Shown here: positions 7,172 through 22,906 of the stretch, in pieces
How the letters are laid out: each line of letters opens with the position of its first letter
How positions within the stretch are numbered: the stretch's first letter is position 1
Virus record (IMG/VR): IMGVR_UViG_3300030330_002475
Coordinates: 1 to 25,972 of that record
Length of the DNA stretch: 25,972 nucleotides
Source: a virus
Taxonomy: Duplodnaviria; Caudoviricetes
Strand: one strand, 5' to 3'
Program-made: the position numbers and the translations under genes
Notes under the pieces: generated by a model
Databases searched by the model: none
The model's input: only the letters and a program-made list of their open reading frames with translations
What the model was told of the DNA's origin: nothing

Positions 7172-8278
7172 ATGTCTGCCACAGACAGAGATGTTTTTCC
7201 TGAAACATTATCTTTTAATTTAACAATAGATGGCATTGTCTTTCCTAATGCCGTCAATGCAAGAGTCACACACACTTTCAATTCTGCTAGAGTGCTCACT
7301 GTGAATTTTATAGGTCAGGAGTCTCTTGATGTATGTAGGCTTGGTGCGGAAGTAGAGTTGTCTTGGGGTAGAGGTAACCTAAGCAATCTGGTGGATGACA
7401 AAAAGTTTATCGGCATAATTAAAAATGTATCGCCCAAACCAGAAGTATCTACATTTACGGCATTGGACTTTACCACATTGCTTGCAGAATCTCAGTTTGT
7501 AAAATTTAAACCTCAAGACTATATTGGTGAGGATTTGTATTTTGCCGCAGCCAAGGCTTGCAATTACAAAGGCATAGATGTTTCACGATTAACACGTGGT
7601 TCAGGTTTGATGATAACAAAGGATATGGATTTATTTGGTTGGAAAACTAGGAAAGAGTTTATTGATGCATGCTTTGCTGAAATGAAAGTATTGGTCAATG
7701 ACCAGTTTCATAAACCTAATACTATCAAGCAATGGCGTTATGCAATCAGGTCAGGTAAAGTGATGGATTTCTTTTTATCAGATGAATCAAATACAGTTAC
7801 CTCATTTCCTTATGTAGAAGTGTCCATAGAGGACGCGAATATTATTAATGGTGGGGTAGTATCCAAAATAGATTCAACGCGCCTTATCAACGCAATAACA
7901 GTAGTTAGTAGTGATGATGAAGATATAGCAGTGCAGTTAGAAGATTCAGGCAGTCAAAAAAGATATGGAGTAGTTAGTAATTTTATATCATATAAATCAA
8001 AAGATAAGAATGAATTAGAAGATGTCGCTTATAAAGTATTGAATAGATTTAAAGAACCTACAGTTAGTTACACGTTAAGTTTGTCTAACCTTGATAATTT
8101 AGATATAGGTGATATTGTAGAAATCAATATGCCTTCTTTACCTAAAGCGACAAGGGAAGTAGTAATAGGATATGAGGTAACTTATGGAGATACATTACAA
8201 ACTAGTTATGTTGTTGGTCAACCAAGAGTAACTCCTAAAGAGTTCTTAGAATTATTAAAAGAACCAACAGATAGATAG
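7172..8278 (+). CDS. Baseplate hub/Tal-like tail protein (Mu gp44/T4 gp27 type fold)
   Basis: 368 aa with hub-like motifs (INAITV, DSGSQKRYGV, LDIGDIVEI). Last gene of the tail operon. Confidence 0.6.
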   Translation: MSATDRDVFPETLSFNLTIDGIVFPNAVNARVTHTFNSARVLTVNFIGQESLDVCRLGAEVELSWGRGNLSNLVDDKKFIGIIKNVSPKPEVSTFTALDFTTLLAESQFVKFKPQDYIGEDLYFAAAKACNYKGIDVSRLTRGSGLMITKDMDLFGWKTRKEFIDACFAEMKVLVNDQFHKPNTIKQWRYAIRSGKVMDFFLSDESNTVTSFPYVEVSIEDANIINGGVVSKIDSTRLINAITVVSSDDEDIAVQLEDSGSQKRYGVVSNFISYKSKDKNELEDVAYKVLNRFKEPTVSYTLSLSNLDNLDIGDIVEINMPSLPKATREVVIGYEVTYGDTLQTSYVVGQPRVTPKEFLELLKEPTDR

Positions 8279-8416
8279 ACACAGACACCTTCATTTCCAC
8301 TGGAGAATATAATATATATCTGGCAATATTTCTGAATATGATAATAAGCCGTCGAATCATCTGTGTTTGTTTTATAGATAAATAAAAAGTTCCAGTGGAA
8401 ACAAAGGTGTGTGTGT
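8279..8416. other. Archaeal oriC-like replication origin: inverted ORB pair flanking AT-rich DUE
   Basis: 26-bp inverted repeat at 8279-8304 and 8391-8416 (23/26 match). The boxes read CTCCAGTGGAAATGAAGG on the - strand and GTTCCAGTGGAAACAAAGG on the + strand, matching the Orc1/Cdc6 ORB consensus TTCCAGTGGAAAC-AAAGG. The 86-bp spacer is about 76% AT by hand count. Intergenic. Confidence 0.8.
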
Positions 8417-8561
8417 GTTAGAAAAGATATGGAGTGTTCAATGTAGCCCAACCGTTAGTTTCTCAAATTTTTGTTGAAAGTCCACGAGAAACTTAAGCTC
8501 GTCCGTAGTTCTCCTACGACTCTATTCTCCATAAGTGCCTATAAGTCCGTTCCTTAAAAGG

Positions 8562-8792
8562 TTAAGCTATACGTTTACCTAGGTGACTTACTTTGATTTC
8601 AATAGCCTTAGAATGGCCTACAACATATATCATACTATCAGTATGGGTGTATCCTTTCCTACCATATCCTTGTCTAGGCCTTTCCCATATGCCTAGTCTC
8701 TTGTGGTGATTAGGATGGTAGTCTTCTTTCATTTGGCTTAGCCATCTATTTGCTACAGCTAATGAATTGACCTGTACCATTCTAGTGGCCAT
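8562..8792 (-). CDS. Small basic hypothetical protein
   Basis: Third gene of a minus-strand operon. ATG at 8792 overlaps the end of the upstream gene. Confidence 0.6.
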   Translation of the reverse strand: MATRMVQVNSLAVANRWLSQMKEDYHPNHHKRLGIWERPRQGYGRKGYTHTDSMIYVVGHSKAIEIKVSHLGKRIA

Positions 8793-9009
8793 CTTTACCA
8801 TCCAGTTCATCTTTGACTGCTCTTAGTGCTTGAGTGAGGAATATCTTTGCACGCCTCATTTCTTTAGCATGCATGTCCATACTTTTCTCTAGGTCCATAG
8901 CTACTTCATCTGGTAAAGTATAGACAGTTTCTATATCAGCTCTAGCAGACTCGAAGTTCTTTGCGGTAGGAGTAGTTGCGCCAAGCTTGATTGTAACGGT
9001 TTTAATCAT
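8782..9009 (-). CDS. Hypothetical protein (beta-hairpin plus helix)
   Basis: ATGA overlap with the upstream stop (start 9009). K-x-G...NFESARADIE pattern resembles small phage proteins. Confidence 0.7.
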   Translation of the reverse strand: MIKTVTIKLGATTPTAKNFESARADIETVYTLPDEVAMDLEKSMDMHAKEMRRAKIFLTQALRAVKDELDGKDGH

Positions 9010-9248
9010 TTGCTTCTCCACTCTTTTTCTATTTCAATCTGTCTTTTTACTTCTAGTATTTGTGTGGTATACTTATTGTATGTTTGTATAGTTTTATACC
9101 TTTCATAGTAGTTAGATTGTTTCTTTATGTAATGAGTATAATGTTCTTCTAGTTCATCAAGACTCATGTTGTTTCGCTCTTCGATTGAGAGTATAGTAAA
9201 CTTGTTAGGTTTATCTTGCTTTTTTTGTGTCTTCTTGTTGTTTGACAT
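9006..9248 (-). CDS. Small coiled-coil hypothetical protein
   Basis: Leaderless ATG about 22-28 nt downstream of a TTATATA box. Confidence 0.7.
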   Translation of the reverse strand: MSNNKKTQKKQDKPNKFTILSIEERNNMSLDELEEHYTHYIKKQSNYYERYKTIQTYNKYTTQILEVKRQIEIEKEWRSK

Positions 9249-20757: not shown

Positions 20758-20786
20758 TTTCCGGAAAGTTATACTTACTTATATAC
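20753..20786 (+). promoter_or_regulatory. Late promoter copy 1: TTTCCGGAAA palindrome, N7, TTACTTATATAC
   Basis: Same architecture at 22853-22886. TATA 21-27 nt before GTG 20806. Confidence 0.8.
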
Positions 20787-20805
20787 ACATATCGGATGTT
20801 AGGCT

Positions 20806-22857: not shown

Positions 22858-22886
22858 TTTCCGGAAATATTGAGTTACTTATATAC
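22853..22886 (+). promoter_or_regulatory. Late promoter copy 2 driving scaffold-MCP
   Basis: AGTAGTTTCCGGAAA N7 TTACTTATATAC, 20 nt before ATG 22907. Confidence 0.8.
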
Positions 22887-22906
22887 CCTTTTGTACATAA
22901 ACAAGT

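Follow-up and report, generated by a model that had tools for sequence, protein, structure and literature searches.

The element at positions 8279–8416 of the window (the whole stretch of DNA analysed, a whole record of 25,972 bases from a tailed virus, in which terminase, portal, capsid and tail genes are recognised) is most probably a viral replication origin that is read by the host Orc1/Cdc6 and shared with a candidate chromosomal origin of archaea resembling Marine Group III (MGIII), which would be the hosts; we put the probability of this reading at about 0.75. A wider proposition, to which we give somewhat better than even odds, is that an abundant family of marine viruses without a replication protein of its own replicates by means of a copied host oriC that includes a lineage-specific ucm-like motif, that these are MGIII viruses, that the element locates the MGIII origin and predicts an MGIII protein analogous to UBP, and that hosts can be assigned by origin matching.

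The element has two inverted arms of 26 bp, at 8279–8304 (minus strand) and 8391–8416 (plus strand), that are identical at 23 of 26 positions and flank a spacer of 86 bp (8305–8390) with an AT content of 75.6%, compared to 61% for the whole window; the tails of both arms point outwards, and in all of these respects the initial annotation was accurate. The left arm carries the core TCCAGTGGAAA at 8294–8304 followed outward by TGA-AGGTGTCTGTGT, and the right arm the same core at 8391–8401 followed outward by CAA-AGGTGTGTGTGT; these are the sole exact copies of the 11-base core in the window. None of the other inverted repeats listed for the window is as long as this pair (39 nt at 77% if extended), and the best 26-bp inverted repeats in 40 dinucleotide-shuffled windows, with gaps of 20–250 bp allowed, match at 18–20 of 26 positions. 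The spacer consists of an AT-rich segment between the left arm and a central motif (8305–8345, 80% AT over its first 40 bases), the central motif AATAAGCCGTCGAAT itself (8343–8357, plus strand), which lies about 41 bp from one arm and was overlooked in the initial annotation, and a portion of variable length (8358–8390). The AT-rich segment is the predicted site of unwinding and MCM loading. The spacer ranks in the top 1.2% of 86-mers in the window for AT content, and its weakest 40-mer (8307–8346) is in the top 0.24%, yet this is the tenth weakest separate trough in the window; the spacer is thus AT-rich, but the easiest-melting DNA of the window lies elsewhere. GC skew was considered as an origin marker and rejected, since it tracks the coding strand here and cannot mark an origin.

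As described in the initial annotation, the element sits directly after the last tail gene (7172–8278, plus strand, 368 aa), with the left arm beginning one base past the stop codon; the product has weak matches to tail proteins (PHROG 400, E 3e-5). This gene adjoins the element only at the position we refer to as site A, and is not part of the module. To the right, two small converging ORFs encoding 82 and 79 aa occupy 8562–9021 on the minus strand. The window is found in marine metagenomes, with 8 of the 20 sequencing runs listed containing at least half of its words and no RNA dataset among the runs listed as containing it. Contigs from four public marine runs, one of which may be the source of the window itself, span the element, and one of these contigs is unbroken with 6 differences over 2 kb.

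The initial annotation proposed that the arms are origin recognition boxes (ORBs), and comparison with known origins bears this out, as they are one base away from published ORBs and from Thermoproteota ORBs that lie mostly beside cdc6. Table 2 of PMC4153887, within the portion of that paper available, gives the archaeal ORB consensus and the ORBs of Ca. M. intestinalis, and a single difference in 20 bases, counted from the core through the GGxGT end, separates the left arm from Ca. M. intestinalis ORB3: a G in that ORB is T in the virus. Paired ORBs are a further likeness to the Methanomassiliicoccales and pan-archaeal sites of that paper, although those are, in the part available, chromosomal and mostly beside orc1/cdc6.1, and the GT-repeat extension of the viral arms falls outside the consensus. 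Matches to an arm with one mismatch are present in 19 of 301 Thermoproteota genomes, compared with none for a reversed control; cdc6 is within 3 kb at 15 of 20 such loci, and among the matches listed all 27 of 27 Thermoproteota sites read GGGGT. The canonical GGGG tail is absent from the viral element, both arms of which read GGTGT, and because GGTGT is also found at the cellular loci described below, we read the viral tail as a variant.

The arrangement of the element is that of an archaeal oriC, as had also been proposed, with the same geometry as the oriC1 of Sulfolobales, represented here by a Metallosphaera javensis locus (L038) that was recovered using a pattern requiring inverted polarity and is called oriC1 from its cdc6 neighbour and a ucm-like word. 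In L038, which is beside orc1/cdc6, the cores are 90 bp apart with tails outward and the ucm-like word is about 43 bp from one core; the corresponding values in the window are the 86-bp spacer and the motif about 41 bp from one arm. The core-to-tail spacing of the consensus, the inverted ORB polarity and the AT-rich segment are thus all oriC1-type features present in the element. There is no orc1/cdc6 gene beside it in the window or in the relatives examined, and for this reason it is not filed as a cellular ori-cdc6 module. An adjacent orc1/cdc6 gene is usual at archaeal origins, and not universal.

In Sulfolobus, oriC1 has the order ORB3-DUE with ucm-ORB2, firing depends on the two ORBs and on the central ucm, and a protein, UBP, binds the ucm (PMC12141716, in the portion available). 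The viral element resembles oriC1 of Sulfolobus/Saccharolobus, as far as that portion describes it, in having inverted ORBs with outward tails about 90 bp apart, an AT-rich spacer and a near-central motif; it differs in being carried by a virus, in having no orc1/cdc6 and a GGTGT rather than a GGGG tail, and in being a candidate origin recognized from sequence. The two motifs also differ, with the viral one having another sequence and a position fixed to one arm rather than at the midpoint as in that description of the ucm. A matrix of the viral motif gives −1.9 bits on the L038 spacer with its ucm-like word, so that no trace of the Sulfolobales/Desulfurococcales ucm sequence is seen, and the viral motif appears to be a ucm analogue by position only. 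By analogy with Sulfolobus oriC1 (PMC12141716), each arm would be occupied by a single monomer of host Orc1/Cdc6, which would load an inward-directed MCM hexamer. The central motif would be recognised by a DNA-binding protein of the host, in the role that UBP has at the ucm, and bidirectional copying of the viral genome would fall to the host replisome.

An indication of the host comes from a chromosomal site that matches the viral element box for box. A scan of JGI metagenomes with a single-arm pattern, covering 32 of the 64 parts of the collection, identified 119 loci, of which 84 have genes of the virus family and 35 do not. Nine of these 35 (L160, L162, L191, L205, L213, L221, L255, L256 and L266) adjoin the same metallo-hydrolase gene, the products of which share 62–100% identity and are encoded at no viral locus. 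Each of the nine has a second inverted ORB 62–64 bp away, and a central motif 34–44 bp from that second ORB scoring 12.5–23.9 bits with a matrix built from viral motifs alone; the scan pattern asked for the right-arm match and included neither the motif nor its distance nor the second ORB. The background rate of scores of at least 12 bits is 0.0004, and the motif is present in none of 26 other archaeal origin loci (maximum 3.6 bits), a set in which two loci overlap and which is without Marine Group II (MGII) origins. The cellular sites have GGTGT on one arm and GGTCTC on the other, where the virus has GGTGT on both, and we speculate that this may make the viral origin a stronger competitor than the chromosomal site. 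No cdc6 gene is found within the 0.6–5 kb covered around the nine loci, and the cellular site is therefore itself only a candidate origin; we propose that it would be the MGIII chromosomal origin, lying away from cdc6. The remaining 26 loci without family genes are four short pieces of the viral element, gene-internal matches, two CRISPR spacers, and other elements.

The assignment of these sites to MGIII comes from their neighbouring genes. A 726-aa neighbour (in L191 and L221, with a homologue in L160) falls into one 90% cluster with OIR17541.1 of the Marine Group III euryarchaeote CG-Epi1, and an EF-Tu-like neighbour is archaeal, with Thermoplasmatota the commonest label in two of its top three clusters. 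Metagenome-assembled genomes (MAGs) with the same neighbouring proteins carry different labels, one being Candidatus Poseidoniales (NCBI nr) and another only Candidatus Thermoplasmatota, and these labels would suit an arrangement in which the mechanism is the same but the cellular site is that of Marine Group II (Poseidoniales) or another Poseidoniia lineage, or is common to such a lineage and MGIII. We consider this unlikely, given the CG-Epi1 protein in the cluster of the 726-aa neighbour, the 32–37% GC of the cellular loci, and the failure to recognise any MGII-like cellular locus among the 119 JGI loci despite the abundance of MGII in such samples (PMC5434244, in the portion available). 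That the candidate-host ORBs should match those of the virus was a check set by the initial annotation, and the nine MGIII-like loci share the arms, tail, central motif and distance; because the correspondence extends over every box, the viruses likely infect those archaea, and MGIII would be the host of the family.

The initial annotation further suggested that the GTGTGT tail could serve as a signature of the host lineage, and this is correct in part. A cellular counterpart with the same tail does exist, but a GGTGT-type tail on its own is also present beside cdc6 in L039 (labelled Nanoarchaeota) and L243, both of which are without the central motif. Judged from these sequences, it is the tail, central motif and distance together that indicate one lineage, and not the tail alone. 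Other routes to a host are less informative. The GC content is similar, at 38–41% for the virus and 32–37% for the cellular loci. None of the 13 GTDB matches to the exact pair pattern is a Thermoplasmatota genome, which says nothing about these hosts because the pattern was set to a spacing of 70–100 bp and the cellular spacers are 62–64 bp. The viral proteins give no host label (there are no taxon names, and Atlas gives just 'Viruses'), and the best terminase matches in INPHARED are phiH and phiCh1, at about 25% identity. We also note that L178 and L252 are CRISPR arrays with spacers containing an ORB and a GGTGT tail, which suggests that ORB-bearing mobile elements are targeted by CRISPR in another archaeal group. 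On a 73-kb contig unrelated to the family (L170:2500-3620), an ORB with the viral-type tail precedes an HTH gene and is close to the gene for an ATPase that clusters with, among others, a protein from a Thermoplasmatota MAG; the contig is possibly a second element of the same hosts.

Within the virus family the element is strongly conserved, as a comparison with related contigs, also called for by the initial annotation, makes clear. A pair pattern blind to the tail recovered 37 loci in IMG/VR, all with the same arms and central motif; 36 of these match proteins of the window and the 37th is on a contig with matches in another locus. A single-arm pattern gave 62 loci, 59 of them in this virus family, and the GGGGT version of the pattern gave one. 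There is exactly one pair per genome in all 11 long genomes (the window and ten long relatives with CheckV completeness of 75–100%, the relatives having been chosen by motif); relatives rated 98–100% complete are 35.7–37.3 kb long, and the family genome is about 36 kb. In a check that is independent of the motif, 80 of 112 terminase-selected loci were retained, nine of them on contigs of at least 25 kb, and the pair is present in all nine; eight had also come up in the motif searches, and the pair of the ninth has one changed base. One of four half-complete contigs has an arm at its end. The other three have no arm match in the parts covered (15.1 of 18.4, 16.5 of 17.9 and 17.7 of 17.7 kb) and are uninformative, because those parts lack the end of the tail gene, where their clade carries the element. 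The tail protein alone yielded no related loci.

A looser scan for arm plus motif gave 91 loci, of which 88 were analysed; 52 have an ORB tail or partner, 48 of these being in the family, and the rest look like chance. Single or paired ORBs are also present on other virus- or plasmid-like contigs (L159, L177, L157, L192, L236, L371, L395, L447 and L092), and L371 and L395 have one ORB with the central motif about 45 bp away.

The family has no recognisable replication genes. No replication family of PHROGs or Pfam is found among the 43 window proteins, and Pfam searches of 132 cluster representatives from the ten relatives reveal no Orc1/Cdc6, MCM, primase, polymerase, helicase or integrase. 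Direct searches for Cdc6_C in five relatives and for MCM in the other five were negative, and cellular Cdc6 used as query has no match in any of the 11 genomes. Most of the small ORFs have no family, so that these results speak to the absence of recognisable replication genes only, and a small or divergent initiator encoded by the virus may have escaped them. Among the genes that can be identified is an MscS-type mechanosensitive channel in the late region of eight of the ten relatives (L137:3395-4228 and its homologues), which may have a role in lysis or be energy-related; this part is missing from the window. Two relatives have amidoligase and glutamine amidotransferase genes in their variable early region (L141:1720-5226), and other relatives encode a DNA methylase and a PAPS reductase domain.

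A site bound by host Orc1/Cdc6 need not be an origin, and it could instead be a decoy or a regulatory site, by which the initiator is drained from the chromosome or the cell cycle is sensed, with replication starting in some other way, e.g. by recombination. In haloarchaea a regulatory function has been proposed for clusters of ORBs that lie outside origins (PMC4010727, in the portion available), and the fuller tail on both viral arms would suit such a role. We nonetheless regard this as quite improbable, as there is one pair per genome in 11 of 11 genomes, the inverted polarity, AT-rich segment and fixed-distance motif are all kept where a decoy needs none of them, and no RadA-like or other recombination-replication family is found among the relatives' cluster representatives. 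The suggestion in the initial annotation that the virus might titrate the initiator away from the chromosome is likewise without support, because each genome has one pair and not an array.

There is a pattern of constraint across the elements, whose more than 100 viral variants amount to a natural mutagenesis in which the arm-to-motif distance is fixed and the other side is free. In a set of 107 distinct elements, which takes in L256 from the cellular loci and two cases paired through a third ORB, the left arm and the motif are separated by 41 bp in 57, by 42 bp in 30 and by 40–46 bp in 105, and the intervening segment averages 83% AT with a variable sequence. Beyond the motif the length varies widely, giving total spacers of 65–182 bp with no clear helical period, a spread wider than a rigid two-hexamer geometry would lead one to expect and a point against the reading as an origin. 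Of 110 elements, 83 have ATGAA as the variable 5-mer of the left arm and 51 have ACAAA as that of the right arm. The two 5-mers are the same in only 14 of the 110, with 3–4 mismatches being commonest, and such maintained inequality suits a pair of oriented protein sites but not an RNA stem.

Several smaller features of the spacers were seen. L005-L036, with spacers of 93–100 bp, have, on the opposite strand and some 7 bases inside the right arm, a partial RACACCTT-like tail; it looks as though a second tail, out of register by 4 bases, belonged to the near-palindromic core. The long spacers of L088, L105, L125, L166, L195, L209, L212, L078 and L356 contain 1–3 CTAAGGGTTAA-like words plus GTGCTTA words, restricted to the variable side, and L115, L118, L174 and L182 have a third ORB-like site close to the pair. 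The 65-bp spacer of L225, on a contig with two family ORF matches, is of cellular length and has viral-type tails on both arms, and it is a possible intermediate between the viral and cellular forms.

The position of the element within the genomes is not constant. Six of the 37 IMG/VR loci have it after the tail gene as in the window (site A), seven have it there flipped, 23 have it before a 683-aa head gene (site B), and one is unplaced; three further loci have a third placement. A terminase tree of 25 rows, from which G315 is omitted (no long terminase), in which G310 is unlabelled and two rows are under half filled, has four strongly supported clades, three of which hold site A in both orientations and one site B. 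No viral gene travels with the element across its three sites, and the element is a movable module, independent of position and orientation. Both the repeated flipping and the location at site A, right past a stop codon and between converging genes, could be accounted for by an RNA hairpin or terminator, or by an attachment, inversion or packaging site, and a 113-aa protein of the relatives has a weak match to PF07508 (E 5e-6). These explanations are barely credible given the arm mismatches that are kept (identical 5-mers in 14 of 110), the flanking genes of site B, which run in the same direction, and the absence of any integrase family or of any locus joining viral and host genes. Contigs in four sequencing runs break at the arms, and no inversion or strand-change joint is found in those runs.

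The lack of a travelling gene also bears on whether the reader of the arms is a protein of the virus (a small initiator or a transcription regulator) rather than the host Orc1/Cdc6. The viruses do have conserved small proteins without a family, some HTH- or ribbon-helix-helix-like in look, and a second, shorter palindrome precedes two late genes of the window, but we give this explanation very little weight, as no gene moves with the element and a cellular chromosome has the same layout in a place where no viral genes adjoin it. Among the universal small proteins the nearest is the 79-aa neighbour, which is encoded in 11 of 11 genomes and remains after the tail gene in the site-B genome; its model (pLDDT 86) is a predicted beta-hairpin and long helix, not a winged helix, and a fold search against the PDB gave no match at E 0.001 or better. 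A zinc-ribbon ORF is present in all ten relatives, often adjoining the element, and is missing at 8417–8561 of the window.

An origin shared between a virus and its host would be a known origin type in a new carrier and role, with the host match making it testable. The haloarchaeal ori-cdc6 modules and Sulfolobus oriC3-whiP, proposed to derive from extrachromosomal elements (PMC4010727, in the portion available), are similar as movable origin modules and in having lineage-specific ORB tails (the haloarchaeal G-string). As described there, those origins travel with an initiator gene, whereas the viral element is without one and has its match in a resident site of the chromosome. Magroviruses of Marine Group II (PMC5434244) are also marine tailed viruses of Thermoplasmatota, and the authors left an MG-III host possible for some of them; according to the available portion of that paper they are 65–100 kb and encode an almost complete replisome (DNAP, MCM, primase, clamp and clamp loader), unlike the viruses of about 36 kb described here, in which no such families are found. 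AFV1, AFV2 and PAV1 are without typical replication proteins and reliance on host replication proteins is assumed (PMC4889955), as it is for AGV1 (10.1101/2021.04.21.440749) and viruses of Thermococcales (PMC12934983), which are reported to lack ORBs, and the available parts of these sources give no origin-level mechanism. Host machinery is assumed for small Asgard viruses, with neither ORB nor Orc1 mentioned in the portions available, and the accessible part of PMC8651126 does not mention Orc1 or Cdc6. In the open-licence literature, supplements aside, we found neither an initiator-less virus reported to have an ORB pair nor a description of any MGIII virus.

The available part of PMC4889955 poses as an open question the way in which small archaeal viruses that have no replication genes begin to replicate, and a 138-bp host-type origin offers a specific and testable answer to it. 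With it come a proposed host for a widespread family of marine viruses and a candidate for the chromosomal origin of the MGIII lineage. PMC12141716, in the portion available, raises the question of ucm and UBP analogues in other archaeal lineages; the central motif is a concrete candidate for a ucm analogue, and could be used as bait for finding its protein.

We also note two other sets of sites. Thermococcales contigs L041, L042, L043, L045 and L048 have clusters of ORB cores in GC-rich spacers, unlike origins. The second palindrome of the window, TTTCCGGAAA, occurs at 20758–20790 and 22858–22890 with a TATA-like box following it, just before late genes encoding 683 and 169 aa, and is present twice in each of G309, G310, G311 and G315 and not in the six other relatives. 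It is likely the site of a late-promoter regulator, and it resembles the ORB core minus its three central bases.
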